Notes: a model not told the origin generated them from the letters alone. Shown: positions 1-25,895, counted from the stretch's first letter. The stretch: 64,000 nucleotides of DNA from Aquimarina sp. (GCA_965230845.1 OZ246021.1:57184-121183), one strand, 5' to 3'. Made by a program: numbers and translations.

Positions 1-1575
1 ACTATTCATACTCGGTACATTCATTGCAAACATAGAACCGATAATACGTTCTCCTTTCTTATCTTGTAATTTACCATATTCGATCCAGGCATCTTTCATT
101 TCAGATTCTGTAAACTCATCATGTGGTAAAGAGTTCGGATCTACAATACTGTCTACTTTCTTTTCCTGATGTTCTTTCTTTTTACGAATACTACTCAAGG
201 ATAATCCCGAAGTCTTTTTACGAGGAGAAGATATAGAAAGATTATTTTTAGTTTCAGTAGCTGGTGTTGGAGTAACCACGTCACTTTCTGTACTACTTAC
301 TTCTCGATCTATGGTTTGAACATTTTCTTTTTCCTGAATATTACTATCTGTTGTTTCTACTGAAACAGGAATGGGTTCAGGTACCGGGTCTGTATTAGGA
401 ACAGGCTTCGTTTCAACCTTCTCTTTAATCTCTTGATTAATTTTTATAGGTTGGATACCTTTTTCTTTGAAATAAGAAGGAGGAATTATGTAGGGTTTGT
501 CATTTTTTTTTTCTCCATCCGGAGTAAGGATAGAGGCAAGCTGCATCAAACATAGTTCAACCAGTAATCTTTGATTACGACTTGTTTTATATTTCAAATC
601 ACAATCATTGGCCAATTCAATTCCTTTTATAAGAAATGCGTGTGATGCTTTTTGCGATTGCTCTAGATATTTTGCTTTGGTTTGTTCTCCTACTTCAAGA
701 AGATTAATGGTAGCTTGATTTTTGCAGACCAAAAGATCTCTGAAATGAGATGCCAATCCTGCAATAAAATGGTGCCCATCAAATCCCTGAGCTAGAATAT
801 GATTAAACTCAATAAGTAATTGAGGAATATTATTTTGTAAAATCAAATCGGTAGCCTTAAAATAGGTCTCGTAATCGAGTACGTTCAAATTTTCGGTTAC
901 CGCTTGTCTAGTTAAGTTTTTACCACTGAAACTAACAACCCGATCAAAAATAGACAAGGCATCTCGCATTGCTCCATCTGCTTTTTGCGCAATAATTTGC
1001 AACGCATCTTCATCGGCATTAATTCCTTCTTGAGCTGCAACCTGCATCAGATGATTTTTGGCATCAGTTACCGTGATTCTTTTGAAATCAAAGATTTGAC
1101 ATCTGGATAAAATCGTTGGAATGATCTTATGCTTTTCTGTGGTAGCTAATATAAAAATAGCGTGCTTTGGAGGTTCTTCTAATGTTTTTAGGAACGCATT
1201 AAAAGCAGCTTGGGATAACATATGAACCTCATCGATGATATAGACTTTGTATTTTCCTACTTGTGGAGGAATACGTACCTGATCAATAAGATTCCGAATA
1301 TCGTCTACAGAGTTGTTGGAAGCGGCATCAAGCTCAAAAATATTGAATGCAAAATCTTCATCTGGATGTTCGTTTCCATCTTGATTGATTGTTTTTGCCA
1401 ATATTCTTGCACAAGAGGTTTTACCAACTCCTCTCGGGCCAGTAAATAGCAAAGCCTGCGCCAAATGGTTGTTTTCTATAGCATTCAGCAAAGTATTGGT
1501 AATAGCCTGTTGCCCTACAACATCCTTGAAGGTTTGAGGTCTATATTTCCGCGCAGATACTATAAAGTGTTCCAT
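1..1575 (-). CDS. dnaX: DNA polymerase III subunit gamma/tau (C-terminus runs off the window edge; absent from ORF track)
   Basis: Manual translation from ATG at 1575: MEHFIVSARKYRPQTFKDVVGQ...LLFTGPRGVGKTSCARILAK (Walker A). The frame reads as continuous dnaX in the stretches translated and is open from 600 to position 1. Confidence 0.96.
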   Translation of the reverse strand, partial: MEHFIVSARKYRPQTFKDVVGQQAITNTLLNAIENNHLAQALLFTGPRGVGKTSCARILAKTINQDGNEHPDEDFAFNIFELDAASNNSVDDIRNLIDQVRIPPQVGKYKVYIIDEVHMLSQAAFNAFLKTLEEPPKHAIFILATTEKHKIIPTILSRCQIFDFKRITVTDAKNHLMQVAAQEGINADEDALQIIAQKADGAMRDALSIFDRVVSFSGKNLTRQAVTENLNVLDYETYFKATDLILQNNIPQLLIEFNHILAQGFDGHHFIAGLASHFRDLLVCKNQATINLLEVGEQTKAKYLEQSQKASHAFLIKGIELANDCDLKYKTSRNQRLLVELCLMQLASILTPDGEKKNDKPYIIPPSYFKEKGIQPIKINQEIKEKVETKPVPNTDPVPEPIPVSVETTDSNIQEKENVQTIDREVSSTESDVVTPTPATETKNNLSISSPRKKTSGLSLSSIRKKKEHQEKKVDSIVDPNSLPHDEFTESEMKDAWIEYGKLQDKKGERIIGSMFAMNVPSMNS

Positions 1576-1580
1576 CGCTA

Positions 1581-1588
1581 CAAAGTTA
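1581..1588 (-). promoter_or_regulatory. Bacteroidota -7 promoter box (TAACTTTG) for dnaX
   Basis: Exact TAnnTTTG match, 6 nt from the ATG. Confidence 0.6.
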
Positions 1589-1670
1589 AAAATTGCAGCC
1601 ATAAATTACATTTCAGGATTTGGTTTTTATATTTAGTTATTAACAGCTGTTGTACTTATTGAATTTATAA

Positions 1671-1678
1671 TATTTTTG
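1671..1678 (+). promoter_or_regulatory. -7 promoter box (TATTTTTG) for rnpB
   Basis: TAnnTTTG match 5 nt before the P1 helix of RNase P RNA. Confidence 0.65.
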
Positions 1679-1682
1679 CAGC

Positions 1683-1978
1683 AAGCAGATCACCTTATCG
1701 CGGCGCTGTCGAGGAAAGTCCGGACACCATAGCGCAGCATAGCGGGTAACGCCCGTCCGTTGTAAGACGAGGACAAGTGCAACAGAAAGAATGTACAGGT
1801 AATGCTGTAGTGAAATCAGGTAAACTCTATGCGGTGCAACGCCATGTAAACCAACTTTTGAGGGTTGCGCGCCCAATGTTGGAGGGTAGGCGGTTGGAGC
1901 TGGTAAGTAATTACTGGCCTAGATAAATGATAAGGCCCGTCTTTTTGACGGTGACAGAATCCGGCTTATGATCTGCTT
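1683..1978 (+). ncRNA. rnpB: RNase P RNA (bacterial type A)
   Basis: GAGGAAAGTCCGG at 1711-1723 and ACAGAATCCGGCTTAT near 1954-1969. Terminal P1 pairing AAGCAGATC (1683-1691) with GATCTGCTT (1970-1978). Confidence 0.97.
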
Positions 1979-2132
1979 TTTTATTTTAGTTTTTGTAAGT
2001 AATGTTTCTCACACAAAAGCTTAGTTTCATTCGTACAAATGCTCCGCGTCAAGGTCAAATAAGTTTTACAACTACTTTAACAATGGGCTATACTAAATTT
2101 CTTGTACCTTGTGCGGCAAAGAAATTGACCCT

Positions 2133-3260
2133 ATGAAAATTGCGATTGTTTGTTACCCTACTTTTGGAGGTAGTGGAGTAGTGGCTACCGAGTTAGGTAT
2201 TGCCTTGGCAAAATTGAACCATGAAGTTCATTTTATTACCTATAAACAGCCTGTACGCTTGGATTTGTTAAATCCTAACATTCATTTTCATGAGGTTCAT
2301 GTTCCAACCTATCCGCTATTTTTATATCAACCCTATGAGTTGGCTTTATCTAGTAAGCTTGTGGGTATCATTAAGAAACATAATATAGATGTTCTACATG
2401 TACATTACGCAATACCACATGCGTATGCAGGATACATGGCCAAAAAGATGCTAGAAGAAGAGGGAATTTACATCCCGATGCTAACCACGCTTCATGGTAC
2501 CGATATAACATTAGTTGGTAATCATCCAAATTATAAACCAGCGGTTACTTTCAGTATTAACAATAGCGATATTGTTACTTCGGTTTCGCAAAGTTTAAAA
2601 GACGATACTTTACGTTTGTTCAATATCAAACAGGATATTAAGGTAGTTCCAAACTTTATTGATGTAAGCCAACAGAAAACAAGCTTTACCGATTGCCAAA
2701 GAGAGGTTATGGCAGCACCAGAAGAACGTATTGTGACCCATATTAGTAATTTTAGACCAGTAAAAAGAATTACAGATATCATAGATATCTTTAATAATAT
2801 TCAAAAAGAAATGCCAGCCAAATTGTTGATGGTTGGAGAAGGACCAGAGCGCAAACCGGCAGAACAGAAGTGTAAAGAGCTGGGGATTAAGGATAAGGTG
2901 ATCTTTCTCGGTAATAGCAATGAGATTGATAAGATTTTGTGTTTTTCAGACCTATTCTTGCTACCTTCAGAACGAGAGAGCTTTGGTTTAGCGGCCTTAG
3001 AAGCTATGGTGAATAAAGTGCCTGTTATATCAAGTAATGCCGGAGGAATTCCAGAAGTAAATCGTCATGGGGTGTCAGGGTACCTAAGTAATGTTGGCGA
3101 TGTTGAAGAAATGTCAGCAAACGCGATTAAAATTCTTAAAGATGACGATGTATTAGAACAGTTTAAGGAGAATGCATACAAAGAAGCAAAAACATTTGAT
3201 GTAAACGAAATCGTTCCTAAATACATTGCTTTATACGAAGGTGCATTAGCAATGACTTAG
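2133..3260 (+). CDS. bshA: N-acetyl-alpha-D-glucosaminyl L-malate synthase (bacillithiol pathway, GT4)
   Basis: MKIAIVCYPTFGGSGVVATELG, HVHYAIPHA, TTLHGTDIT and ESFGLAALEAM motifs. The ATG at 2133 is preferred over the GTG at 2109. Confidence 0.93.
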   Translation: MKIAIVCYPTFGGSGVVATELGIALAKLNHEVHFITYKQPVRLDLLNPNIHFHEVHVPTYPLFLYQPYELALSSKLVGIIKKHNIDVLHVHYAIPHAYAGYMAKKMLEEEGIYIPMLTTLHGTDITLVGNHPNYKPAVTFSINNSDIVTSVSQSLKDDTLRLFNIKQDIKVVPNFIDVSQQKTSFTDCQREVMAAPEERIVTHISNFRPVKRITDIIDIFNNIQKEMPAKLLMVGEGPERKPAEQKCKELGIKDKVIFLGNSNEIDKILCFSDLFLLPSERESFGLAALEAMVNKVPVISSNAGGIPEVNRHGVSGYLSNVGDVEEMSANAIKILKDDDVLEQFKENAYKEAKTFDVNEIVPKYIALYEGALAMT

Positions 3261-3295
3261 GAACGATTTATATTGTTTCGTTATATTCTTTTCTA

Positions 3296-3784
3296 TTAGA
3301 ACTGATAACGGATTCCTAACCCTAGGTCAAAATCTAGATCATCATCATTGTCTCCAAAACCTATTTCTGGTCTAAAATCAAGAGATATGAGTATAGGAAT
3401 ATTAAAGTTGTATTCTATACCGATGTCACCAGCGATAAATAGATAGGTATCACTATCATCTCCACCAGGGAAATTATCATCCAGATCTACATATACAAAT
3501 CCTCCACCAGGACCTACATACCAATTAAATCCTTTGTCCAGATTAAATACCCATTGGTATAGCCCTGTAAATTTGATAGCATCTCCAAAATCGAAATCTC
3601 TCCATCCCAAATCAAACTCAAGTCGATTGTTTCCGCTTAAGCCTAATTGATAAGATATTTCTGCACCAAAACCATCATCATCTCCCAACCTCAAACCTAA
3701 TGCGTGCTTAGAAATTTCTTGTGATTGAACTGTACTTATCGACGCTACAATAAAAGCTACAATAAATAAAATACGTTTTGTCAT
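3296..3784 (-). CDS. Small outer-membrane beta-barrel protein
   Basis: Signal peptide, alternating amphipathic strands and C-terminal GIRYQF. Confidence 0.75.
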   Translation of the reverse strand: MTKRILFIVAFIVASISTVQSQEISKHALGLRLGDDDGFGAEISYQLGLSGNNRLEFDLGWRDFDFGDAIKFTGLYQWVFNLDKGFNWYVGPGGGFVYVDLDDNFPGGDDSDTYLFIAGDIGIEYNFNIPILISLDFRPEIGFGDNDDDLDFDLGLGIRYQF

Positions 3785-3862
3785 AGTTAAATAGGTTTTT
3801 TAGATTTATGATATCAAATATAACGTTCCATATCTACTTTTAATGTATTTAGTCGATATTTA

Positions 3863-4675
3863 TTACGATTTTTGTAGCAGCATGTCAGTGCTTTCAAAGA
3901 TTTTGTCGGCGGAGTTTGCTATAAATCCGGTAAATAGCGTTCCGTCTTGTTTTGGGTAGCGATAAGCGAATTCATAATAACATGAAGTGATGTTTTGCTT
4001 TCCTTCTTCAAATTCGAATTCAATTTTATCTGCCAGTATGCTGGATTGTTCCAAAAGTTGATCTGCAGAGCCTTTGATTTCTCCACCCGAGGTATTCATC
4101 TGGAAACCATTGTTTTTCAAGAAACGATTTACCTGCTCTAGCATATCAAAAGAACTCAATTTGTTTACATCTACGGTGAAGTGATTTGAGCAAAAACCAT
4201 TAACATACATCCATGCGGCATATTCAGATTCCTCAAGCAATGAAGTATAGGTAGCATGCGAAGGAGTTTTCCAAACTCTACCCTTCAGAATCAGATCATC
4301 CTGCAAGAATACTTCTTGATCCACTTCATCTAGTAGTAATTTAACAGTGTTTTGTAATTGTACAGAACATTCTTCCAACAACAATTGACTGATAAAAATT
4401 TTTGGAGCATCTGGATCCTCTTGATGTTCAAAATGTTTTGCATATAACTTTTTAGCTTCAAAACGATATTCTCCTTTTGAGATATATCCCATTTGTATAA
4501 AAACACGGGAAAGTACATCGATGTTTACTCTGGGATCGTTGAAAGTTCGTATTGCAATATGATCGTTGAAAACAGTATTTCCTTCCTCCTCAAATAGTGA
4601 TTTTACCTTTTGCGCAGAGGGAGTCTTGGTAGTATATTGTTTCCATAATTCATTAAAAAAATCAGTAGTATTCAT
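3863..4675 (-). CDS. DUF1338 family protein (2-oxoadipate dioxygenase/decarboxylase, HglS-like)
   Basis: NDHIAIRTF, NHFTV and YYEFAYR supply the His/His/Glu metal triad typical of DUF1338. Confidence 0.8.
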   Translation of the reverse strand: MNTTDFFNELWKQYTTKTPSAQKVKSLFEEEGNTVFNDHIAIRTFNDPRVNIDVLSRVFIQMGYISKGEYRFEAKKLYAKHFEHQEDPDAPKIFISQLLLEECSVQLQNTVKLLLDEVDQEVFLQDDLILKGRVWKTPSHATYTSLLEESEYAAWMYVNGFCSNHFTVDVNKLSSFDMLEQVNRFLKNNGFQMNTSGGEIKGSADQLLEQSSILADKIEFEFEEGKQNITSCYYEFAYRYPKQDGTLFTGFIANSADKIFESTDMLLQKS

Positions 4676-4834
4676 AACGTCTTGTTTTTTAATGTAAAAT
4701 TATTAGTTTTGACTTTAATAAGGGTTATATGTAGTCTATTTAATCTTGTTAGGTTTGTTTTTGTGTTAAACTAACAGCAAAGTGTTTGAAAATAGCTCTG
4801 TTTTGAATAATTTCATCTATAAAACAATACTGTC

Positions 4835-5320
4835 ATGCATCATTTTGATTATATCGATCAGCAAATTTTGTTACAGATCAGGGAGGATGCAAGAAAACCT
4901 TTCTCTCAGATAGCAGAAGACTTGAAGATTTCTAATTCACTGGTACATCAACGTATACGAAAACTAAAGGAACAAGGAGTTATTGCCAAGGCAGAATTTG
5001 TCGTGGACGAGAAAAAGATTGGTTTCAGAACAAAATCATATGTGGGCATCCGTCTTAGAGAAGCGCGTTATGCCGAGCAGGTAGTTGCTGGATTAAAAAA
5101 AATACCAGAAATTTTAGAATGTAATTTTGTATCTGGTAATTATGCTATTTTCATTCTTATTTTTGCATATGATAACCACCACCTAAGAAAAATTCTATAT
5201 GAGCAAGTTCATCATATTGATGGAGTAGCAGGAACTGATAGTTTTATTTGTTTTGATACCAATTTCAAAAGACCCGTATCGTTAGAAGCTTTAACGAAGA
5301 AAGATGTTTATGATCAATAA
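4835..5320 (+). CDS. Lrp/AsnC family transcriptional regulator
   Basis: N-terminal DYIDQQILLQIREDARKPFSQIAEDL HTH plus C-terminal RAM-type domain. Confidence 0.92.
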   Translation: MHHFDYIDQQILLQIREDARKPFSQIAEDLKISNSLVHQRIRKLKEQGVIAKAEFVVDEKKIGFRTKSYVGIRLREARYAEQVVAGLKKIPEILECNFVSGNYAIFILIFAYDNHHLRKILYEQVHHIDGVAGTDSFICFDTNFKRPVSLEALTKKDVYDQ

Positions 5321-8237
5321 GGCATTACTTCACCAATTTCAGAATACGCTAGAGGGAGAGTTTAGATTTGATTCACTCTCCAAGCGGTTATATGCTACAG
5401 ACGCCTCTGTGTATCGAAGAATACCCATAGCCGTGGCATTTCCAAAGACGATATCAGACATTAAAAAGATAATCACTTTTGCTGAAAAACATAAAATAGG
5501 CATTATTCCCAGAACAGCAGGAACTTCTCTTGCCGGTCAAAGTGTTGGAGAAGGAATAGTGGTAGATGTATCTAAGCATTTTACCAAAATAGTTACGGTA
5601 GACGAAGCGAACAAAACAGTTACCGTTCAGCCAGGTGTAGTTCGAGATGATTTAAATAGATATCTAAAACCGTACGGACTTTTCTTTGGTCCCAATACAT
5701 CAACCTCTAATAGATGTATGATTGGAGGAATGGTAGGTAACAACAGTAGTGGTACCACCTCCATACAATATGGTGTTACTCGTGATAAAGTGCTGAGCAT
5801 GCAAACAATTTTATCTGATGGTAGCGAAGCTTCTTTCTCTAATGTATCTCCAGAAGAGTTTCATGCAAAACGGCAATTGTCTTCATTAGAAGGTTCTATT
5901 TATCAGACTATTTATGATGCACTTTCTTCAAAAGCAGTACAAGAGCAAATCAAAACCAATTTTCCAAAGGCCGAGATTCACCGTCGTAATACAGGATATG
6001 CGATCGATGAATTGATTGAATCTGAAGTTTTCTCTGATAATAGTCAACCTTTTAATATGTGTAAGCTGTTATCGGGTAGTGAGGGAACACTGGCTTTTAC
6101 TACAGAAATTACACTACAGTTGGATGAGCTCCCGCCAGAAGAATCCTCTATGATTGCTGCACACTTTAATAGTATCGAGGATTGTATGAACGCGGTTAGC
6201 CCTGTTATGCAACACAAGTTATTCACTTGTGAGATGATGGATAAAACGATCCTTGATTGTACACTGAATAACATCGAACAATTAAAAAACCGATTTTTTA
6301 TCAATGGTGATCCGCAAGCGATATTGATGTTAGAGTTGAGGAGCAATAGCAAAGATGATCTGGAAATCCAGGAAAAACAACTGCTTGCTGAAATTCAAGA
6401 TTCTGGGCTTAGCTATGCAAACCCTATATTGAGAGGTAAAGAAATTGACCAGGCCTTAGAACTTCGAAAAGCAGGTCTGGGGTTGTTGGGTAATATTGTT
6501 GGTGATAAAAAAGCCGTAGCCTGCATAGAGGATACTGCAGTAGCCATTCCTGATTTGGCTTCATATATTTCTGAGTTTACCGAAGTGATGAAATCTTATG
6601 ATCAGCAGGCGGTTTATTATGCCCATGCTGGAGCAGGAGAATTGCATTTACGCCCCATATTGGATTTGAAGAAAAGCGAAGATGTAACGCTTTTCAAGAA
6701 AATTACAGATGATGTCGCTACTTTGGTGAAAAAATACCAGGGATCCATGAGCGGAGAACATGGGGATGGTATCGTAAGAGCCAGTTATATTCCTTATATG
6801 ATTGGTAGTGATAATTTTGAAATCGTAAAGCGAATCAAAAAACTATTTGATCCTAACGCTATTTTTAATCCTGGAAAGATTGTTGATGCATATGCAATGG
6901 ATGAAAAGTTGCGTTACGAAGTGGATCGAAAGGAACCGGATATAGATACATTACTTAACTTTTCAGATTCCTTAGGAATTCTAAGAGCCACAGAAAAGTG
7001 TAATGGGAGTGGAGATTGTAGGAAATCGGTAGAAGCTGGAGGGACGATGTGCCCAAGTTATCGTGCTACAAAAAATGAAAAAGATACAACCAGAGGAAGA
7101 GCTAATGCATTAAGAGAGTTTCTTACTACTGGAGGGAAAGAAAACAACTTTGATCATAAGGAATTAAAGGAAGTATTTGATCTTTGTTTGAGTTGTAAAG
7201 GATGTGCAAGTGAATGTCCTTCTAATGTAGATGTAGCTGCGCTAAAGGCAGAGTTCGAATATCAATACCAAAAAGAAAACGGAACATCCCTAAGAACAAA
7301 GCTATTTGCGCACAATAATCGTTTGAATGGGTTAGGGCGAATAAGTACAGGTATTACCAATTTCTTTTTCACTAATAGTTTCACTTCGGGAATTTTGAAA
7401 TCTGCATTAGGAATTGCTAAAGAACGAGAACTCCCAACACTGAGCAAGTTTTCTTTACGGAAATGGTGTGATCAAAACCTTAAAAGTTTACAACCTGAAA
7501 GTCCAATCAAATCTATATATCTTTTTGTAGATGAGTTTACGAATCATTTAGATACGGAAATAGGAATTGATGCAATAAAATTACTGACAAAGCTGAATTA
7601 TGAAGTCAAAATAGCAGATCATAAGGAGAGTGGCCGATCATATATTTCAAAAGGGTTATTACAGCATGCCAAGAAGTTTGCAAATCAAAATGTAGAACTT
7701 TTTGCTCCTTTTGTATCCCAAGATGTTCCATTGATTGGGATAGAGCCTTCTGCTATTCTTACGTTCAGAGATGAATATCCCAGATTAGCGAAGGATAAGA
7801 ACAAGGCAAAACAGCTAGCTTCAAATACGTATTTGATCGATGAGTTTTTAGCTTCGGAAATTGAACTAGGAAATATAAAACAAAATCAATTTTCTACTGA
7901 AAACAAAGTGATTAAGTTACATGGACACTGTCATCAAAAGGCCTTGTCTGGAGTACATCATACGTTCACTACTTTGAATTTACCAGAAAACTTTAAGGTA
8001 ACCATCATCCCTTCGGGATGTTGTGGTATGGCAGGATCATTTGGTTATGAAAAGGAGCACTATGAAATCAGCATGAAAGTAGGGGAACAAACCTTACTCC
8101 CGGCAGTAAGAAAGGCTCCAAAAGATACACTTATTGCTGCTGTAGGTACAAGTTGTAGACATCAAATAAAAGACGGAACACAGCGCGAAGCACTGCATCC
8201 CGTCTCTATATTGTATGATGCTCTGATTAAAAATTAA
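5304..8237 (+). CDS. FAD-binding and Fe-S-binding oxidoreductase (YdiJ/D-2-hydroxyacid dehydrogenase-like)
   Basis: YATDAS...GTSLAGQ FAD domain, SGEHGDG, CNGSGDC and CLSCKGCASECP ferredoxin motifs, HGHCHQK and GCCGMAG CCG domains. Confidence 0.88.
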   Translation: MFMINKALLHQFQNTLEGEFRFDSLSKRLYATDASVYRRIPIAVAFPKTISDIKKIITFAEKHKIGIIPRTAGTSLAGQSVGEGIVVDVSKHFTKIVTVDEANKTVTVQPGVVRDDLNRYLKPYGLFFGPNTSTSNRCMIGGMVGNNSSGTTSIQYGVTRDKVLSMQTILSDGSEASFSNVSPEEFHAKRQLSSLEGSIYQTIYDALSSKAVQEQIKTNFPKAEIHRRNTGYAIDELIESEVFSDNSQPFNMCKLLSGSEGTLAFTTEITLQLDELPPEESSMIAAHFNSIEDCMNAVSPVMQHKLFTCEMMDKTILDCTLNNIEQLKNRFFINGDPQAILMLELRSNSKDDLEIQEKQLLAEIQDSGLSYANPILRGKEIDQALELRKAGLGLLGNIVGDKKAVACIEDTAVAIPDLASYISEFTEVMKSYDQQAVYYAHAGAGELHLRPILDLKKSEDVTLFKKITDDVATLVKKYQGSMSGEHGDGIVRASYIPYMIGSDNFEIVKRIKKLFDPNAIFNPGKIVDAYAMDEKLRYEVDRKEPDIDTLLNFSDSLGILRATEKCNGSGDCRKSVEAGGTMCPSYRATKNEKDTTRGRANALREFLTTGGKENNFDHKELKEVFDLCLSCKGCASECPSNVDVAALKAEFEYQYQKENGTSLRTKLFAHNNRLNGLGRISTGITNFFFTNSFTSGILKSALGIAKERELPTLSKFSLRKWCDQNLKSLQPESPIKSIYLFVDEFTNHLDTEIGIDAIKLLTKLNYEVKIADHKESGRSYISKGLLQHAKKFANQNVELFAPFVSQDVPLIGIEPSAILTFRDEYPRLAKDKNKAKQLASNTYLIDEFLASEIELGNIKQNQFSTENKVIKLHGHCHQKALSGVHHTFTTLNLPENFKVTIIPSGCCGMAGSFGYEKEHYEISMKVGEQTLLPAVRKAPKDTLIAAVGTSCRHQIKDGTQREALHPVSILYDALIKN

Positions 8238-17585: not shown

Positions 17586-19058
17586 ATGGGAAAGATTTTT
17601 GCTATGAAAAAAAATGTTTTGGAGAATGTGTATGACCCATCAGTTTTTAGAACAATAGGGCATGAGCTTATTGATTTGCTTGCAGATCATTTGGAAAAAG
17701 TACAAAGTGACAGAGAACATCCGGTACTACCGTATAAAGATCCAGAAGTGGTTCTAGATTATTGGAAAAAAGATTTCTCTTCGGATACTGGAGTTATGGA
17801 TATGTTTGGGAATATTTTGTCTCAATCGATCAATGTACATCACCCAAGATATATCGGTCATCAGGTGGCAGTACCTGCATTTATTTCGAGTTTATCAGGA
17901 TTAATATCTGATGTGATGAGCAATGGCACAGGGGTTTACGAGATGGGAATGGCTGCTAATGCCATAGAACGAATTGTAACCGATTTGGTAGCTCAGCGAA
18001 TAGGATACGATCAAAATGCCTCGGGATTGCTTACTTCGGGAGGAAGTTTAGCTAATCTTACCGCTTTGCTAGCAGCTAGAAAAGCAAAAGCACCTTCTTC
18101 AGTATGGGAAAAAGGACATCAGGAAAAGTTAGCGATACTAGTATCAGAAGAGGCACACTACTGTATAGATCGAGCAGCAAGGATTTTAGGGTTAGGAGAA
18201 GAAGGCATCGTCAAGGTACCAGTAAACCGTGATTATAGTATCGATACTTCAAAAGTGTTCGATTGTTTGGAAGAAACTCAATCAAAAGGATTACACGTTA
18301 TTGCTATTATCGGTTGTGCATGTTCTACAGCAACAGGATCTTATGATGATCTGGAATTTTTAGGAGATTTTGCGAGTACACATAACCTATGGTTTCATGT
18401 AGATGGAGCCCATGGTGCCGGAGTTATTTTTTCAGAAAAATATAAACATTTGGTAAAAGGAATTGCAAAAGCGGATTCTGTAGTTTTGGATTTTCATAAG
18501 ATGTTGATGACACCTGCATTAAATACTGCTCTGGTATTTAAAAATTCAAGAGACTCGTATCGTACCTTTGAACAAAAAGCACAATATTTATGGGATTCTC
18601 AGCATTCTCAAGAATGGTATAATTCTGGGAAGCGAACTTTTGAGTGTACCAAATTAATGATGTCTATAAAAGTTTATGCGATTTTGAAAGCATACGGAGA
18701 AGAAGCTTTTAGTCAGAATGTAAATACCCTGTATGATCTGGCAGAGACATTTTCTGAAATGATAGATAAACAAGAAAGTTTTGAACTTGCTCATCATCCA
18801 CAAGCAAATATTGTGAATTTTAGATATGCTCCCGAACAGGTCGATATTGATTTAAATACATTGAATAATAACATACGACAAGCTCTTATTCAATCGGGTA
18901 AATTTTATGTTGTACAGACTACCATAAATGGAGAAAAATATTTACGTACAACGATGATGAATCCATTAACAACCAAGGATGATTTGATAGCATTGATAGA
19001 AGAGGTACATCATCTCGGAACCGCATTTGTAAAAGAAAAAGTATCTAATTCACTCTAA
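17586..19058 (+). CDS. Group II PLP-dependent decarboxylase (DAB/aromatic amino acid decarboxylase-like)
   Basis: SGGSLANL, HYCIDRAA, HVDGAHG and DFHK (PLP lysine). A TAATTTTG promoter box at 17560-17567 argues against the TTG start at 17565; the true start is 17586 or 17604. Confidence 0.87.
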   Translation: MGKIFAMKKNVLENVYDPSVFRTIGHELIDLLADHLEKVQSDREHPVLPYKDPEVVLDYWKKDFSSDTGVMDMFGNILSQSINVHHPRYIGHQVAVPAFISSLSGLISDVMSNGTGVYEMGMAANAIERIVTDLVAQRIGYDQNASGLLTSGGSLANLTALLAARKAKAPSSVWEKGHQEKLAILVSEEAHYCIDRAARILGLGEEGIVKVPVNRDYSIDTSKVFDCLEETQSKGLHVIAIIGCACSTATGSYDDLEFLGDFASTHNLWFHVDGAHGAGVIFSEKYKHLVKGIAKADSVVLDFHKMLMTPALNTALVFKNSRDSYRTFEQKAQYLWDSQHSQEWYNSGKRTFECTKLMMSIKVYAILKAYGEEAFSQNVNTLYDLAETFSEMIDKQESFELAHHPQANIVNFRYAPEQVDIDLNTLNNNIRQALIQSGKFYVVQTTINGEKYLRTTMMNPLTTKDDLIALIEEVHHLGTAFVKEKVSNSL

Positions 19059-19141
19059 TTTTTAACATTTAATAACGCAACGAACACTAAAAGGTCTTCA
19101 TCTACAGTTATATAGAAAGAATTAACCAAAACTTATTACAA

Positions 19142-19546
19142 ATGAAAAGGGCACTCTATATAACGATATTAGCCATTGTATTAGGATGCAGTGGGGATGA
19201 TGATACTAATGTTATAATCCCACTAACAGGCATAGATGGAGTCTGGAATTTGATAAATGTTACAGGTGGTTTTGTGGGTACAGATCATGATTTCGAAAGT
19301 GGGTTAATTACTTGGGATTTTGAAGAAAGTAGCCAAACCGTCACTATTACCAATAACAATACTGATGATACCCTTGAGGATTCTTTCCCTTCAGGGACCT
19401 ATACGTATACGATTATTACTGCTCAAGGAGGTAATCAAGAAATACTGGTTGATGGACGTAACATAGGTAATTTTGAACTCACCAGCAATCAATTTACCAT
19501 CGATGAGACTTTTAGAGACGGTTTTCGTTTTACATTTCGACGTTAA
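19142..19546 (+). CDS. Surface lipoprotein, possibly lipocalin-like
   Basis: Lipobox VLGC followed by SGDDD; G-x-W-x-L (DGVWNL) motif. Confidence 0.7.
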   Translation: MKRALYITILAIVLGCSGDDDTNVIIPLTGIDGVWNLINVTGGFVGTDHDFESGLITWDFEESSQTVTITNNNTDDTLEDSFPSGTYTYTIITAQGGNQEILVDGRNIGNFELTSNQFTIDETFRDGFRFTFRR

Positions 19547-21426
19547 AGACTAATTCTTCTGCTGCGCGGATGTTTTACCTGGTATGAAAACTGTTTTTCC
19601 AGTTTTTGGTTAGCTTGTACATCTAGCTTCCAGGTCATTATTCCCTTTTTTGAATCGTAAACCGCTTGATCTGTTTGAACTTCATCCAGTTTGATATCTT
19701 TATTTTGGGAAACCGGTATACGATCTTCAACCGTGATATTTATGTTGCTTTTTTTGTTGTTTTTGATGGTGATTTTATACGCTCGATTTACAATTTTACT
19801 ATTACCAGTAAAGTTTTTGCTTTTGAAGTTTTTGAGTTGTTCTCTTTTTACCACAATATTAGGATCAACACCTAAAGAGACAGTCAAAGTGTCTGTAGTA
19901 TGCAATGGATCTATATTTGTTTTGCCTGCATAACTGCCTTCAAAGTAGATGTTGGCTTCTCCAGCGAGTAAATTGAACTGTTCCCAATTGGCAAGTTTTG
20001 CAGTTAGAAATACATTCTCATTTAATTCTGGAGCTACATAGTGATTATAATCTGTTCGGATTTCAAAATTATCGATTTCTATAATCGTAATATCAGCATT
20101 AGAAGGGATGCTGTATTTTTTCTTAATTTTAAATCGAGTATTCGTAATTCCTTCTTCTTTCACTTCGACTACTTCATTATAATACTCTTTTTTTTCTTTT
20201 TTTCTGGTATAACTAGATCTTGGAGAATAACGACCAGATGACCCAGAAGTGGAATACCCTGCAATTACTACTTCATCTAAAACGGAAGTGTCTTCCTCTA
20301 AAGAAATATTCATAACCGAAGAATAAATCGGAAGTGATTGAGATGAAAATCCTATGTACGAAAATGAAAGCTCTCTACCATCAGCAACTTCTAGTGTGTA
20401 ACGGCCATCAAAATCAGTTTGTGTTCCATTTGAGGTCCCTTTTTCGATAACATTAACTCCAGGTAAAGGTAATCCACCATCGTCCAGAACAATTCCGTTA
20501 ATGGTTTTTACAGTTGGATTGTATTGATAACCATATCGTTTTATTGCATTTTGCTGTCGGTTACTACCATAGCTAAAGTTTAAGTATTTTGGAGACACGT
20601 TAGGTTTGATATTATTAGTATTTGGATCACCCGTGGATAGTGTAATGTTTACGTTGTTCCAAGGAGTACCTGTTTGCTGGTATACATTGGCTTTGTAGGC
20701 CATTTTGATAGGATCCTTTATGCTTTGGGATTTGATATCGTATAACGGAAACCATCCCGCTTGAGTAACATTGTATTGTATCACAAGACTCAGTGTGGTA
20801 GCTACCGGAGCATCTAGTTTCACCTTGATCTCTCCCCGTTGTTCTTTGGTATCGTCATCCAACTTGTCAATTTGTTGGGTTATTGCAGATATTTCATCAG
20901 ATAGACGATCTATTTTTTGTGTATGCGTATAGGTTTCATTCTGAATTTCAATTGCTCTATCTCTATAATAGGCAGATATTTCTTTTACTTTTTCCAAAGA
21001 AAGAGATTCTGTTGTACTGGCGATACGCTGATTGTTTTCCAACAATTTTTTTTCCTGACCAAGTCCAGTTATGATATTTTCTAGCTTGTTTTTTTCAAGT
21101 AATAATTGTTCTAATTGCTTTTGAAGGGCAGTTAACTCTTCTGAAGTTTTTCTTTTTTCCAAATAGTCGATTCCAAAATTTATTGACAATATAGAAACGT
21201 TTTTAAGTCCTGAAATCTGAATACTATTCTCATTAATTGTAGGGGATAGGTCATGGAGTAAAATTTCGTTAGTCCCTGGTTTTAAAGAAACGTCAGCGGT
21301 TCTTTTTATTCGAGCACCAGTGAGATATACGGTGACGTCTTCAATAGTTGATACCGTCTTTTTTCCAGTATTTGCCAATGTAAGGTTAGCAATCAAAAGT
21401 AATATGGATAGTAATACAGCTCTCAT
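19543..21426 (-). CDS. DUF4139/DUF4140 family protein with an inserted carboxypeptidase-regulatory-like domain
   Basis: IEDVTVYLTGA start, coiled coil, AGWFPLYDI and QQTGTPW, C-terminal VEDRIPVS; internal PLPGVNV...TDFDG domain. Confidence 0.85.
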   Translation of the reverse strand: MRAVLLSILLLIANLTLANTGKKTVSTIEDVTVYLTGARIKRTADVSLKPGTNEILLHDLSPTINENSIQISGLKNVSILSINFGIDYLEKRKTSEELTALQKQLEQLLLEKNKLENIITGLGQEKKLLENNQRIASTTESLSLEKVKEISAYYRDRAIEIQNETYTHTQKIDRLSDEISAITQQIDKLDDDTKEQRGEIKVKLDAPVATTLSLVIQYNVTQAGWFPLYDIKSQSIKDPIKMAYKANVYQQTGTPWNNVNITLSTGDPNTNNIKPNVSPKYLNFSYGSNRQQNAIKRYGYQYNPTVKTINGIVLDDGGLPLPGVNVIEKGTSNGTQTDFDGRYTLEVADGRELSFSYIGFSSQSLPIYSSVMNISLEEDTSVLDEVVIAGYSTSGSSGRYSPRSSYTRKKEKKEYYNEVVEVKEEGITNTRFKIKKKYSIPSNADITIIEIDNFEIRTDYNHYVAPELNENVFLTAKLANWEQFNLLAGEANIYFEGSYAGKTNIDPLHTTDTLTVSLGVDPNIVVKREQLKNFKSKNFTGNSKIVNRAYKITIKNNKKSNINITVEDRIPVSQNKDIKLDEVQTDQAVYDSKKGIMTWKLDVQANQKLEKQFSYQVKHPRSRRISL

Positions 21427-21622
21427 AGTGGTATAATTTTTGGTTACTATACGAATGTATCCTGATCTATACCCGTATGAAATGTAAAATGAGTGAAGTA
21501 GTATTTTTATTGAGTAAACATGATCATCGCTTAAACGATCAAGAAAATATGAAATAGAGTAGGGGGATTTTCCCCTCCCTAATTTTAGTTAAACTCCCCT
21601 TACATCGTGTTTACCTAATCTA

Positions 21623-21630
21623 TACTTTTG
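21623..21630 (+). promoter_or_regulatory. -7 promoter box (TACTTTTG) for small ORF 1
   Basis: TAnnTTTG match 38 nt upstream of the ATG at 21668. Confidence 0.55.
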
Positions 21631-21667
21631 AAACATCACTTTATCACACTAATAAACAAAAATAATT

Positions 21668-21841
21668 ATGAAACGGCTGTTACTTCCTTTAGCGCTTATT
21701 GCATTTGCTGTTATATGTTTGAGCATTGTACATATAGACAATGTAAATAAGCTTGATGCGCAATCTGAAGAGTTGCGAAAGAAAATAAATTCTGAAAACG
21801 GAACAGAACAATTAAATACCACTACTCCAGAAACGAAATGA
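21668..21841 (+). CDS. 57-aa small membrane-anchored protein (paralogue 1; not in ORF track)
   Basis: MKRLLLPLALIAFAVICLSIVHIDNVNKLDAQSEELRKKINSENGTEQLNTTTPETK. A-rich start context; 20/28 N-terminal identity to the ORF at 22157. Confidence 0.8.
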   Translation: MKRLLLPLALIAFAVICLSIVHIDNVNKLDAQSEELRKKINSENGTEQLNTTTPETK

Positions 21842-22086
21842 ATAGATAAGGATACCATTCTTATTAATGAGTAGGGCTTATTTATGTTTTATATTCGTCC
21901 AGTATCACGTTATTTAATATATACTGGATGAATAAAAATTTAGCTAATATTAGCTAAGGTATAATCTGTTTGTATTTAGTAGTTTACATGATTTTACTAT
22001 AAATCCAACTACAAAGACTTAGCTAGATTGACGAATTCTAGTTCATTCTCTACGAATACTAAAAGTTGAAAAGGGAATTAAATATT

Positions 22087-22127
22087 GGCTTTACTTTTAT
22101 ACCGTAAAAAAAGTAAGGTCTTTTTTT
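22087..22127 (+). terminator. Intrinsic-terminator-like hairpin 30 nt upstream of small ORF 2
   Basis: 12-bp stem (22087-22098 with 22109-22120, two G-U pairs) followed by T7. Confidence 0.6.
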
Positions 22128-22156
22128 GTTCCAAATTGTTTTAATCCCAAAATAAA

Positions 22157-22303
22157 ATGAAAAGGTTACTACTACCAGTGTTATTAATTTGCTTTGCTAT
22201 CTTTTGTTTATCCTATATACATATTGATAATATGAACAAGATAAACGAGGAGAAAGCTGCTATAGAGAAGCAAAAAGAAGAAGCCCTCCTTCTTACAGAG
22301 TAG
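22157..22303 (+). CDS. 48-aa small membrane-anchored protein (paralogue 2; not in ORF track)
   Basis: MKRLLLPVLLICFAIFCLSYIHIDNMNKINEEKAAIEKQKEEALLLTE. Conserved residues use different synonymous codons from paralogue 1. Confidence 0.8.
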   Translation: MKRLLLPVLLICFAIFCLSYIHIDNMNKINEEKAAIEKQKEEALLLTE

Positions 22304-22327
22304 TCAACGAATAGGTTACTCTTGTTC

Positions 22328-22741
22328 TTATTGGTCGATGAACAGTGCCTTAAGCTCAGGGGTAGGAATCATACAGCTATCCTTTTTACCAAACCATTTG
22401 TACCTATTTCGGGCGATAATATCATATACCCAATCCCTTAAGAATTTGGGAAGTATTAAAAAAGCAGACAAAAGGGGATACCCACCTCTCAGGTGTTTTG
22501 CGATTTGCAATGCTGCGGTAGATTTATGGTAATACGCTATTCCTGGATCAATCAAGAGAATAGAATCTATTTCCTGGGTATTAATATTTCTTTCGGCAAT
22601 TAGTTTTTGACCGATTTCACTTTGCAAAGAAGCATACACAAACATTTTGTGTTTGTCACGTTTGATGATAAAATTAATAGCTCCGTTGCACAAATTGCAG
22701 ACACCGTCGAACAGAATAATCTTTTTCCCTTCTTCAATCAT
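22328..22741 (-). CDS. DCC family thiol-disulfide oxidoreductase (DUF393)
   Basis: LFDGVCNLCNG (DxxCxxC) and RNRYKWFG motifs. Confidence 0.92.
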   Translation of the reverse strand: MIEEGKKIILFDGVCNLCNGAINFIIKRDKHKMFVYASLQSEIGQKLIAERNINTQEIDSILLIDPGIAYYHKSTAALQIAKHLRGGYPLLSAFLILPKFLRDWVYDIIARNRYKWFGKKDSCMIPTPELKALFIDQ

Positions 22742-22799
22742 AATGCAAAGATACGACGAATAATTTAGTAGCTTTTGCGCTTTAGTATTTTGTTATGTA

Positions 22800-23615
22800 T
22801 TATTTTACAATAACCGATTCAATAACTTCTTGTGTAGTTATTTGAAGGTTTTTGGGGAGTTTGTTGTCTTTAGGGAGTACTGCAAGATATCTATCGTTAT
22901 TAGAATCGTATACCTGTTTAAAAACAGGGTTTTCTAGAACCATAGACTCGCATAATTCTTTGATCAAATCAAAATGATATGATAAATCATTACTCCCAAG
23001 ATGAAAGATCCCTTTTTTATTTCTATTGATGATATAATGGATTTGCTGAGTCAGTTTAGAAATAGTGGTCGCATTAATAATCACATTAGGAAAGACTTCT
23101 ATAGGCGCTTTAAGGTCGTACAAAGTTTTTAGCTCTTGAATTCTTGGAGTAGCAGGTCCAAAGATCATAGGCACTCTGGCAATTACATATTTGGAAGTAG
23201 GAAGACGCATCAAAGCATTTTCGATCTTAATCTTAAATCTACCAAATACACTATTACTTAGCGTCTTATCAAATTCGTAAGAAGGATAATTACTAAAAGA
23301 ATCAAATACATTAGCACTCGACATAAAAATTAATCTTGATCGGTGCGTTTTGATCCAGTCGATGATCCGTTGATGAGCATCCAATTGCGAATTGAAATTT
23401 CCTCTAATCGCAGAAATGATAATCGCAGGTTTTAAATTATCCAGGAGAATAGAAATATCCTCTAATTCCATATCATACTGGAAAAATTTCTGATTTTTTT
23501 CAAAGAACGTATTGTCCTTACAATAGGTCCCATAGGTGTCATAATAGGAATTAAGCTCTTTGTATAGAGCATTTCCTATAAAACCACTGGCTCCTATGAT
23601 CAGAATTTTTTTCAA
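22800..23615 (-). CDS. RmlD-like NAD(P)-binding extended SDR protein
   Basis: IIGASGFIG Rossmann motif, FMSSANVFD, FGRFK. Confidence 0.75.
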   Translation of the reverse strand: MKKILIIGASGFIGNALYKELNSYYDTYGTYCKDNTFFEKNQKFFQYDMELEDISILLDNLKPAIIISAIRGNFNSQLDAHQRIIDWIKTHRSRLIFMSSANVFDSFSNYPSYEFDKTLSNSVFGRFKIKIENALMRLPTSKYVIARVPMIFGPATPRIQELKTLYDLKAPIEVFPNVIINATTISKLTQQIHYIINRNKKGIFHLGSNDLSYHFDLIKELCESMVLENPVFKQVYDSNNDRYLAVLPKDNKLPKNLQITTQEVIESVIVK

Positions 23616-23699
23616 AATGAAATGATGCTAAAAAAATTAAGTTTCAAACATTACAGATCTGTAACCTTGAAACTTAATCCTATTACTTTTATTATATAA

Positions 23700-24782
23700 T
23701 TATCCTTTGTAAAAAGGTAATTTAACTACCGTAGCAGGAATGGCCTTTTTACGAACCTGAATATTAATTTTACTATCAGGTTTGGCAAAAATAGTAGGTA
23801 CATATCCTAGTCCTATCCCTTTACCCAAAGAAGGAGACATCGTACCTGAAGTTACATTACCGATAACATTTCCATTGCCATCTACAATATCATATCCTTG
23901 TCTTGGGATTCCTCTTTCGTCCAATTCAAAACCTACTAGTTTTTTTTCAGCTCCTCGTTCTTTCTGCTTTCCTAATTCTTCAGCATTGATAAAATCTTTG
24001 GAGAATTTGGTGATCCATCCTAAACCAGCTTCAATAGGAGAGGTGGTGTCGTCAATATCATTACCATAAAGACAGTATCCCATTTCCAGACGAAGTGTAT
24101 CTCTAGCAGCCAATCCAATAGGTTTGATTCCAAAATCAGCTCCAGCTTCTAGTACTTTATCCCAGATTTGTTTTACTTCGGTATTCTTGCAATAGATTTC
24201 AAAACCTCCACTTCCTGTATATCCCGTTGCCGAAATGATTACATGTTCGATACCAGCAAAATCGGCTACTTCAAAAGTGTAGAATTTCAAAGCTTCGAGA
24301 TCCACAGAGGTTAGAGATTGCATGGCAGCAGCTGCTTTTGGTCCTTGGATGGCCAATAAGGAGTAATCCTCAGACAAGTCACGCATTTCCGCTCCCATAC
24401 TATTATGACTACTGATCCAATCCCAATCCTTTTGGATATTGGAAGCGTTAACCACCAATAAATATTTTTCGTCTGCTATCTTATATACGATTAAGTCATC
24501 AACAATACCACCTTGATCGTTGGGTAAACAACTATATTGTGCTTTACCATCAATTAGCTTTGATGCATCATTAGAGGTTACTTTTTGTATAAGATCCAAT
24601 GCATTGGGTCCAGTGATCAAAAACTCTCCCATGTGCGAAACATCAAAAACGCCAACCCCATTTCTTACAGTTTCGTGTTCTATATTCACACCTTCATAGG
24701 ATACAGGCATATTATATCCTGCAAAAGGAACCATTTTGGCGCCAAGAGCAATATGAGTTTCTGTTAATGCAGTATTTTTCAT
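23700..24782 (-). CDS. gcvT: Glycine cleavage system aminomethyltransferase T
   Basis: [31 protein letters not shown]. The start MKNTAL at 24782 is preferred. Confidence 0.97.
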
Positions 24783-25011
24783 TGTTAGCAGCTTATTTAA
24801 TTGAAGGCCGAATGTAAAAAACTTTGGGTAGCTACACAATGCTTTTTTGTTATAATCTTGATAAATTGTTAACTAAAGTGCTCTGCTTTTACTGCTACTT
24901 ATGATATTCGCAATTTTCTTACAACTATCTCAATGATTATATATTTTGAACGACCCTAACCAAACTTTTAATATCTTTAGAAAACATACCTAACTTTTAA
25001 ACTGTTTGATC

Positions 25012-25428
25012 ATGCCAACAGCAGGATATTCTGGAACACCCCTCGCAAAGAAACTTGGTATTAAAAAGGGGAATGCAATATTGTTATATAATGCGCCTAA
25101 GCACTACTATGAGCTTTTCGCAGATTTTCCCGAAGGTGTGACAGAACTTGATGCTGTTGCAGAAGAGGTGGCTGATTTTATACATATTTTTTGTACTTCT
25201 TTTGAAACACTTAAAGAAATAGTACCTCAATACAAATCTGCTTTGAAAAAAAATGGAATGCTTTGGGTGAGTTGGCCAAAAGGTAGTTCTAAAATTTCAA
25301 CAGATCTGAAAAGAGATCCTATTAGAGAGTACCTCTTGAATATTGGATTGGTAGATGTTAAAGTAGCTGCTGTAGATGAAGATTGGAGTGGATTAAAGTT
25401 CATGTACCGAATAAAAGACAGAAAGTAA
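25012..25428 (+). CDS. DUF3052 family protein
   Basis: AGYSGTPLAKKLGIK, LWVSWPK and GLVDVKVAAVDEDWSGLK motifs. Confidence 0.85.
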   Translation: MPTAGYSGTPLAKKLGIKKGNAILLYNAPKHYYELFADFPEGVTELDAVAEEVADFIHIFCTSFETLKEIVPQYKSALKKNGMLWVSWPKGSSKISTDLKRDPIREYLLNIGLVDVKVAAVDEDWSGLKFMYRIKDRK

Positions 25429-25490
25429 AGATAAAGAACAATAAGCAACCTTTTTCTTTGTAGATCATCTCCTTATAAAAGATCAATACC

Positions 25491-25895
25491 ATGAAAAAGT
25501 ATATCATCATTCTATTATTAAGTGTAGCCTTTGTGTCCTGCTCAAGCGACGATGACAATCAGAATCCTGAAGCAACAGTTATTGGTAAATGGAAATTGGT
25601 CGAAGCATTGGTTGATCCTGGGGATGGTAGTGGAACATTCCAACCTGTAGAAAGTAATCAAACCATCACTTTTTTTGAAACTGGTAGTGTGGTGTCAGAA
25701 AACGGATCACTTTGTAATATTTTTTCTGAATCTGCGGAGACAAGTTCCGGTACCTTTTCGTTTGAAACCAATACCTTGGAAATTGGTTGTGTGGATGATG
25801 TGATCACACTTACCTTTGAGCGTACTACATTAAATCTAATTATCTATTACCCTTGTATTGAAGGCTGTGCATTTAAGTATATAAGGGTCGATTAG
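25491..25895 (+). CDS. Surface lipoprotein, possibly lipocalin-like
   Basis: Lipobox FVSC followed by SSDDD; IGKWKL motif. Confidence 0.7.
   Translation: MKKYIIILLLSVAFVSCSSDDDNQNPEATVIGKWKLVEALVDPGDGSGTFQPVESNQTITFFETGSVVSENGSLCNIFSESAETSSGTFSFETNTLEIGCVDDVITLTFERTTLNLIIYYPCIEGCAFKYIRVD

Follow-up and report, generated by a model that had tools for sequence, protein, structure and literature searches.

We analysed two small open reading frames (ORFs) that lie in tandem within a 64-kb stretch (64,000 nucleotides [nt]; here called the window) of the genome of Aquimarina sp. (GCA_965230845.1, OZ246021.1:57184-121183) and that had been proposed, from the sequence of this stretch, to encode a pair of paralogous small membrane proteins. 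Both ORFs were found on the plus strand as predicted, with ORF1 at 21668-21841 (57 amino acids [aa]) and ORF2 at 22157-22303 (48 aa). ORF1 encodes an A-type protein with an MKR N terminus, a predicted hydrophobic helix at residues 5 to 23, a juxtamembrane helix with the sequence HIDNVNKLD..ELRKK and a variable polar tail ending in lysine. The product of ORF2, the B-type paralogue, carries the same helix and HIDN motif and is distinguished by residues C12, F/Y20 and M26; its tail is charged and shorter than that of A. A recount detected identity at 20 of the 28 N-terminal residues, the same figure as that originally reported, and BLASTP comparison of the two proteins gave 21/39 identities with an E value of 5e-16. 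Identical residues had been said to be encoded frequently by different codons, and this was the case for 11 of the 20 (CGG/AGG, CTG/TTA, TTA/CTA, CTT/CTA, CCT/CCA, CTT/TTA, TTG/TTA, AGC/TCC, ATA/ATT, GAC/GAT and AAT/AAC). Comparison of codons 1 to 28 of ORF1 and ORF2 within this one genome detected a synonymous difference of 0.74 and a non-synonymous difference of 0.24. Only these two copies of the family were detected in the window by a profile search of all six frames.

Distribution and coding potential of the gene pair

A profile of both proteins matched 77 small proteins of 43 to 78 aa, and all of the named ones were from Aquimarina (Flavobacteriaceae). The locus was then scanned in one genome per species, giving 58 loci (numbered with the prefix L), all of which were labelled Aquimarina except for three metagenome bins named to family or class only. 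Genes of the ORF1 type are referred to as A and those of the ORF2 type as B. A genes, encoding 54 to 64 aa, were present at the locus in 58/58 cases, while B genes, encoding 39 to 52 aa, were present as a tandem second copy in 35/58, and the reading frames were intact in all 58 A genes and all 35 B genes. The closest locus was that of A. spongiae DSM 22623 (L001), with 95% identity for ORF1 and 100% identity for ORF2. The original prediction, which turned on the existence of homologues, was borne out by their presence at one syntenic locus in 58 species genomes.

When 1.84 billion representative proteins were searched with a profile and without a word index, only 21 clusters with one architecture were detected, and again all named members were Aquimarina. 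Searches of Pfam, NCBIfam, PHROGs, PADLOC and PDB sequences yielded no match near the gathering score for either family. Relaxed library scans produced matches to DUF2756, a radical SAM model, EMC5 and Cmr1, which were rejected as sub-threshold hydrophobic-segment or coiled-coil noise; the best PADLOC match, to the CRISPR Cmr1 model, had an E value of 0.016 and was not meaningful. No paper on the A/B family was found in the literature. These comparisons indicated that A and B constitute an uncharacterised family confined to the genus Aquimarina and, by the locus scan, that A is a core gene present in every Aquimarina species sampled. The description of the pair as unannotated was partly right. 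Many A-type orthologues appear as 'hypothetical protein' in RefSeq Aquimarina entries (for example, WP_170864529.1, the A. spongiae orthologue of ORF1), and both window proteins were found as gene calls in a protein collection; B-type copies had no name or accession in the sources checked. A new family model is justified, so that B-type copies get called.

Selection on the two genes was examined from the ratio of non-synonymous to synonymous change (dN/dS) and from the distribution of variation among codon positions. For codons 1 to 28, the median dN/dS was 0.086 in A and 0.144 in B, and for codons 29 to 40 of A, it was 0.19. Mean synonymous differences over codons 1 to 28 were 0.59 (A) and 0.68 (B), near saturation. 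Entropy at codon position 3 was 1.04 in A and 1.02 in B, as opposed to 0.15 and 0.25, respectively, at codon position 2, and variation was concentrated at third codon positions in the frame of the ORFs. Selection at the level of the protein, as originally proposed, was upheld by dN/dS values of approximately 0.1, by this third-position variation and by the homologues in the 58 species, and the dN/dS values pointed to strong purifying selection. An opposing explanation is that the ORFs arose by chance or that conservation acts on the DNA or RNA rather than on the protein. The ORFs are short and matched no family model, as this explanation would have it, but we give it almost no credence: dN/dS is approximately 0.1 with saturated synonymous sites, variation tracks the ORF frame, frames are intact in all genomes and antisense ORFs are not conserved in extent. 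The pattern of codon variation effectively refutes a non-coding origin of the conservation, and by these measures ORF1 and ORF2 are real protein-coding genes under strong purifying selection. A 69-aa ORF on the opposite strand (21649-21858, minus strand) was considered as a further candidate and rejected, as its extent was not conserved across species and the codon-position pattern tracked the ORF1 frame.

Promoters, neighbouring genes and history of the locus

A perfect -7 box had been noted ahead of the first ORF. This Bacteroidetes-type box, TACTTTTG, is located at 21623-21630 (plus strand), 37 nt before the ATG of ORF1, and an equivalent TAnnTTTG box was present 40 to 50 nt upstream of the A start in 56/58 loci. 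Transcription of ORF1 would start near 21636 and generate a short, A-rich 5' leader (21636-21667, plus strand) which is predicted to be unstructured, the fold of 21636-21730 having a z score of +1.12 relative to shuffled sequences. Overlapping the -33 region of the promoter is the motif TAGTTAAACTCCCCTTA (21586-21602, plus strand), which was near-invariant across the 58 loci, is unique within the window and is complementary to an upstream GTAGGGGGA. The consensus of the A loci in the -33 region was TAG[TG]TAAA[CG]TCCCCTTA, followed by a spacing of approximately 20 nt to the -7 box. A G-run/C-run palindrome, GGGGG-ATTTT-CCCC, lies further upstream (21560-21581, plus strand) and is terminator-like on both strands. 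Whatever the upstream gene, nearly all of the 58 loci had a corresponding GGGG-N4-6-CCCC sequence at a constant distance from the -7 box; it may serve as an insulator resembling a terminator or as a binding site for a protein.

The spacer between the ORFs (21842-22156) is 315 nt long and contains, as had been described, a hairpin, an 18-bp palindrome and a terminator-like hairpin. The third of these is part of a conserved element, as a block with a hairpin and T-run was detected in 35/35 loci, as was a TAnnTTTR box 60 to 75 nt before the B start. In the window, this hairpin (22087-22127, plus strand) has 12 bp, is followed by a T7 run and has a fold z score of -2.68, making it a candidate intrinsic terminator of the ORF1 transcript; across loci, the hairpin is weak and the element is conserved. 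The -7-like box of ORF2, TACTTTTA (22092-22099, plus strand), lies inside the 5' arm of the hairpin, and hence a single block may both terminate the A transcript and act as the promoter for B. The leader of B has the conserved form GCTCCCAA..TTTTAATCCCAAAATAAA, and the ORF2 leader with the first codons folded no better than shuffled sequences (z = +0.45). Just upstream of the ORF2 promoter is a direct repeat, ACGAATTCTA and ACGAATACTA, at 22031-22040 and 22052-22061 (plus strand), 21 nt apart. The sequence CTACGAATTCTAAAA was nearly invariant in 32 aligned B loci, with a second copy 21 nt upstream in at least 8 loci, and the ACGAATTCTA repeat is a candidate transcription-factor site. Judged by these alignments, A and B each have their own conserved Bacteroidetes-type promoter, with different promoter regions, and ORF1 and ORF2 would be transcribed separately. 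A regulon search indicated that neither the A nor the B conserved upstream motif recurs convincingly within the 64-kb window.

The other two elements of the spacer differed from this block. Two stem positions of the 14-bp hairpin (approximately 21893-21935, plus strand; a predicted fold) are disrupted in A. spongiae, and other species lack the hairpin. The perfect 18-bp palindrome, TTAGCTAATATTAGCTAA (21940-21957), has a paired position broken in A. spongiae, is polymorphic in related strains and is likewise absent from other species. The middle of the spacer ranged from 171 to 640 nt across loci and was not conserved. The regulatory weight previously attached to the hairpin and palindrome was not supported; neither was conserved even in the closest relative, and both are lineage-specific and probably without function. 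An Rfam search of the whole window produced no match within the A/B locus. The sole match above the gathering score in the window was a bacterial class A RNase P RNA at 1682-1983 (plus strand; 202.7 bits).

Downstream of the pair and convergent with it is a gene for a DCC1-like thiol-disulfide oxidoreductase (22328-22741, minus strand; Pfam PF04134, E = 2.7e-32). This gene was the downstream neighbour in 58/58 loci and in every locus examined except L059. When B was present, it always sat between A and the DCC1-like gene, beyond which are an RmlD-like gene and then gcvT. Among the four most divergent members examined, three were still arranged tail to tail with the DCC1-like gene, and in two of those three loci, the gene past it was not RmlD-like. 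The family gene overlapped the DCC1-like gene by 18 nt in L064, and the other gaps were 18 to 32 nt. The exceptional locus, L059, is on a metagenome contig with no DCC1-like neighbour and carries the most divergent member (445-657; 70 aa), in which TTQIDN replaces VHIDN and the Cys and His are missing. The upstream neighbour of A was variable (a DUF4139/4140 protein, a 134-aa protein or others), and the nearby genes encode DUF4139/4140, DCC1-like, RmlD-like and GcvT proteins, a pyridoxal phosphate (PLP) decarboxylase and a LysR regulator. In Salegentibacter and Gramella, the DCC1 orthologues (70% identity) were found in a MutS2/DCC1/symporter context with no small ORF. As the named members of the family are all from Aquimarina and these two neighbourhoods have no small ORF, the family appears to be an invention of the Aquimarina lineage.

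A 12-bp terminator-like hairpin for the DCC1-like gene was detected at 22270-22296 (minus strand), within the part of ORF2 that encodes the tail (QKEEALLLT), and in some loci, such as L002 and L004, the B stop codon overlaps the end of the DCC1-like gene. From the position of this hairpin and the overlapping ends, the 3' ends of B and the DCC1-like gene must be transcribed over each other. A conceivable reading of the arrangement makes A and B membrane subunits, specific to this lineage, of the tail-to-tail oxidoreductase, with the conserved residues Cys17, His22 and Asp24 of the small proteins (described below) tethering or redox-coupling the enzyme at the membrane interface and with expression coupled in antisense via the convergent 3' ends. 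We regard such a partnership as doubtful. If it were true, the gene would have originated beside its partner in the Aquimarina ancestor, and a later duplication would have given rise to two isoforms that differ in regulation.

The DCC1-like gene also provided a trace of the origin of the pair. A degenerate relic of its 3' end is located directly behind ORF1 (21851-21877, plus strand), and in A+B loci generally, the sequence after the A stop codon matched the A/DCC1 3'-end junction of A-only loci. The best-preserved trace was a 174-nt DCC1-like fragment between A and B in L053 (4209-4382), with 57% identity at the protein level. This relic after A indicates that the pair was created when a tandem duplication copied a segment reaching into the 3' end of the DCC1-like gene. 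In a neighbour-joining tree of three downstream genes, the A+B state was found in the earliest branches and in many others, and A-only loci formed one large clade and at least six scattered lineages. Given this basal position of A+B and the scatter of A-only loci, the duplication appears to predate the divergence of the Aquimarina species sampled, with several apparent losses of B, and deletion may have taken place by way of the repeated DCC1 ends. B would be derived from A, having gained or retained a different promoter region and been lost repeatedly, with A as the core gene and B as a differently regulated, dispensable isoform.

Organisation of the locus was also relevant to one of the functions originally put forward, that of a type I toxin-like peptide. 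In such a system, the synthesis of A and B would be curbed by small RNAs, either antisense or adjacent, from the spacer or the flanking DNA. Several type I toxins are similar in size, in the order of hydrophobic helix and charged tail and in the occurrence of tandem copies with a long spacer, and transcription of the convergent DCC1-like gene could extend across the 3' ends of A and B. However, no conserved TAnnTTTG box was detected on the opposite strand between -200 and +260 of the starts (58 loci for A and 35 for B), and the leaders were unstructured with free start codons (z = +1.12 and +0.45). Furthermore, the genes are neither patchy nor multi-copy but are under strong purifying selection at one fixed locus in 58/58 species, A-only loci have no room for a downstream small RNA gene, conservation is lacking in the variable middle of the spacer and there was no meaningful PADLOC match. 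No description of a type I toxin-antitoxin system in Bacteroidetes was found in the literature. Overall, a toxin function is very unlikely.

Several further features of the surrounding DNA were observed. A 627-aa DUF4140/DUF4139 protein with an inserted CarboxypepD_reg-like domain is encoded directly upstream of the A promoter (19543-21426, minus strand). Its gene, situated between the 134-aa gene and A, exhibited a presence/absence polymorphism among Aquimarina (L002 to L006 versus L007 and L008), and only a short remnant was detected in L009 and L039. The 134-aa ORF (19142-19546, plus strand) had no Pfam match. Its position beside the gene for the PLP-dependent decarboxylase was conserved in most of the Aquimarina loci, and it was tandemly duplicated in some loci (e.g., L028, L030 and L034). 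In one clade (L028, L030, L034, L035, L038, L044, L045, L047 to L051, L056 and L057), a conserved block of the form GGATACGTTACAAAC.AATAAA...GGGAAAACAAAAAAAGTAACGG followed by a hairpin was present in the approximately 130 nt after the A stop codon (4178-4310 in L049, for example). The block in L049 overlaps a 34-aa Lys/Arg-rich ORF (4164-4268). A third small gene or a small RNA may be represented by this clade-specific block, which is absent from the window.

Protein architecture and probable mode of action

Alignment of the A proteins gave the consensus MKRL[LF]LPxxLIxFAVICLSIVHIDNVNKLDxQSNELRKKH, followed by approximately 20 variable polar residues, with a C-terminal Lys in 52 of 59 sequences. 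The B consensus was MK[QRK]xL[LI]PxxL[LI]CF[TA]xxCLx[FY][VI]H[IM]DNM[ND]K, followed by a short charged tail. The Kyte-Doolittle maximum over 19 residues was at residues 5 to 23 for both window proteins, with values of 2.66 for ORF1 and 2.46 for ORF2, and both (57 and 48 aa) have the properties of small hydrophobic membrane peptides. The hydrophobic stretch is 20 residues long and contains no helix breaker, A having no Pro or Gly at residues 8 to 19. The N terminus carries a charge of +1.9 in ORF1 and +1.4 in ORF2, and the 15 residues past the helix carry a charge of approximately -0.5; this difference between a positive N terminus and a slightly negative post-helix segment favours a topology with the N terminus inside and the C terminus outside.

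An AlphaFold2 model built with the family alignment predicted a single continuous helix from residue 5 to residue 48. The predicted local distance difference test scores were 82 to 93 at residues 1 to 20, 77 to 79 at residues 21 to 40 and low in the tail. In both families, the periodicity of conservation over residues 4 to 25 was strongest at 100 degrees (A, permutation P = 0.005; B, P = 0.03). The conserved positions (L6, P7, L10, I11, F13, A14, C17, L18, I20, V21, H22, D24 and N25) form a broad face of the helix, and the variable positions (residues 5, 8, 9, 12, 15, 16 and 19) form a stripe. Conservation of one face is expected of a helix that packs on a membrane protein and not of a cleavable signal peptide. 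The tails had been described as coiled-coil-like, which they hardly are: past the membrane helix, only approximately two heptads are kept in A, and the remainder is variable and modelled with low confidence. With a length below approximately 60 aa and one helix that carries the conservation, the proteins resemble small bitopic modulators, which are a functional kind and not a homology family.

The combination of a conserved N-terminal part of 28 to 40 residues and a hypervariable, Ser/Thr-rich C-terminal part of 20 residues mimics the leader and core of precursors of ribosomally synthesized and post-translationally modified peptides or bacteriocins. This origin of the pattern is highly improbable. 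What would be the leader is a hydrophobic helix of the membrane type, and no gene for a modifying enzyme, a protease or an exporter lies within approximately 5 kb. In addition, the upstream neighbours differ among species, and neither Cys nor Ser/Thr residues recur in a pattern in the tails.

Cleavage by signal peptidase would lead to a different product. The first 19 residues could be a cleavable Sec signal peptide, releasing secreted or periplasmic peptides of 20 to 45 residues with an [I/F/Y]-[V/I]-His N terminus that would act as an X-X-His Cu/Ni site (similar to the amino-terminal Cu and Ni binding [ATCUN] motif) or as signalling peptides. The MKR n-region, the hydrophobic core (L4 to I16) and the presence of C17-L18-S/G19 at -3/-1 in most A and B members are as expected for such a signal, the invariant His22 would be residue 3 of the mature form and the conserved DNVNKLD..ELRKK segment falls in the would-be mature part. 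On the other hand, the hydrophobic core is conserved along one helical face and not for hydrophobicity alone, the hydrophobic stretch is 20 residues long, with no Pro or Gly ahead of the putative site, the modelled helix runs through the site and the remainder of the mature peptide would be the least conserved part of the protein. The +1 residue is I, F or Y in all members and is not Gln, which is exposed at +1 by most, but not all, Bacteroidetes signal peptidase I substrates (PMC5837995). The lipobox of bacterial lipoproteins processed by signal peptidase II, L-[ASTVI]-[GAS]-C, was not found: Cys17 follows I or V in A members and F, L, C or A in B members, with A-C at this position in some B members only. 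Taking both sets of observations together, we consider secretion unlikely, with somewhat more to be said for it than for the other rival readings.

We favour instead, at a probability of roughly 55%, the interpretation that A and B are uncleaved bitopic inner-membrane proteins, with the N terminus in and the C terminus out, which act by means of the conserved helix face and the Cys17...His22-x-Asp24-Asn25 motif on a larger membrane protein or on each other. We infer the topology, the absence of cleavage and the existence and identity of the partner from the comparisons described above. The MKR N terminus would be kept in the cytoplasm and residues 4 to 23 would form an uncleaved membrane helix, positioning the Cys17...His22-x-Asp24-Asn25 motif at the outer interface of the membrane. 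In A, a short conserved polar helix would extend past the membrane, and the variable tail behind it would be disordered and periplasmic. Packing of the conserved helix face on the larger membrane protein, or of A and B on each other, would result in modulation. Three functions had originally been offered, and the kind represented by single-pass regulators of a membrane complex is the one favoured by the conservation of the helix face, the unbroken 20-residue stretch and the AlphaFold2 helix; the type I toxin is weakened and the secreted precursor disfavoured.

Several points weigh against this interpretation. The C17-L18-S/G19 sequence fits the -3/-1 rule of signal peptidase I, and cleavage is thus possible. 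The genes lie outside any membrane-complex operon. The test of helix periodicity involved 22 positions in related sequences, and the number of B losses comes from a quick neighbour-joining tree of three neighbouring genes. Public sequencing runs were also considered as a source of expression evidence and were rejected, as their depth was not interpretable as transcription. Run X1 had a uniform depth of approximately 500 to 560x over the window (19000-25500 and 1-6000), equivalent to its 2,967 M letters over the 5.44-Mb genome, which indicates isolate DNA. Run X5, from the same sample, yielded 100%-identical fragmentary contigs at approximately 25x, with patchy coverage, gaps and no excess over the RNase P RNA, as would be expected of noisy, error-rich long-read DNA and not of RNA.

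Annotation of small membrane proteins is incomplete, and hardly any have been investigated in Flavobacteriia. A and B are unusually well supported by comparison, consisting of a genus-wide core gene with a conserved helix face, an invariant Cys...His-x-Asp-Asn motif and a repeatedly lost sister copy, and are a good candidate for how a taxonomically restricted small protein gains a function. The outcome is a well-supported annotation of a known kind of protein; the established picture is unchanged and the mechanism would not be surprising.

Comparison with known small membrane proteins

Small single-pass membrane proteins that modulate larger membrane proteins are known from enterobacteria and include MgrB, AcrZ, MgtS, CydX and KdpF. 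A and B are similar to these proteins in having fewer than 60 residues, one predicted membrane helix and conservation in or near this helix, and in being encoded by stand-alone genes with their own promoters and a narrow taxonomic range. In contrast, A and B have no sequence relationship to the enterobacterial proteins, are found in Flavobacteriia and form a conserved tandem pair of paralogues with different promoter regions. The type I toxins TxpA, BsrG and Fst have an N-terminal helix and a charged tail, and A and B share with them the length, the order of hydrophobic helix and charged tail and the occurrence in tandem copies. They differ in having neither a conserved antisense promoter nor a structured leader and in occupying a fixed locus of the core genome.

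A weaker resemblance was detected to DUF2756 (PF10956), with matches of 14 of 41 members to the first 34 positions of this model and a best E value of 0.0063. These matches involved the N-terminal hydrophobic segment only and scored 14.6 bits against a gathering threshold of 21 bits, and the resemblance was judged to be compositional and not due to homology. FtsB and FtsL are bitopic divisome proteins with an N-in membrane helix followed by a periplasmic coiled coil. Similarly, the membrane helix predicted for A and B continues into a short heptad-like helix, with hydrophobic positions in A at V26, L29, S/Y33 and L36. A and B are approximately half the size of FtsB and FtsL, with approximately two conserved heptads and no homology, and they are restricted to one genus and encoded outside the cell-division gene cluster.

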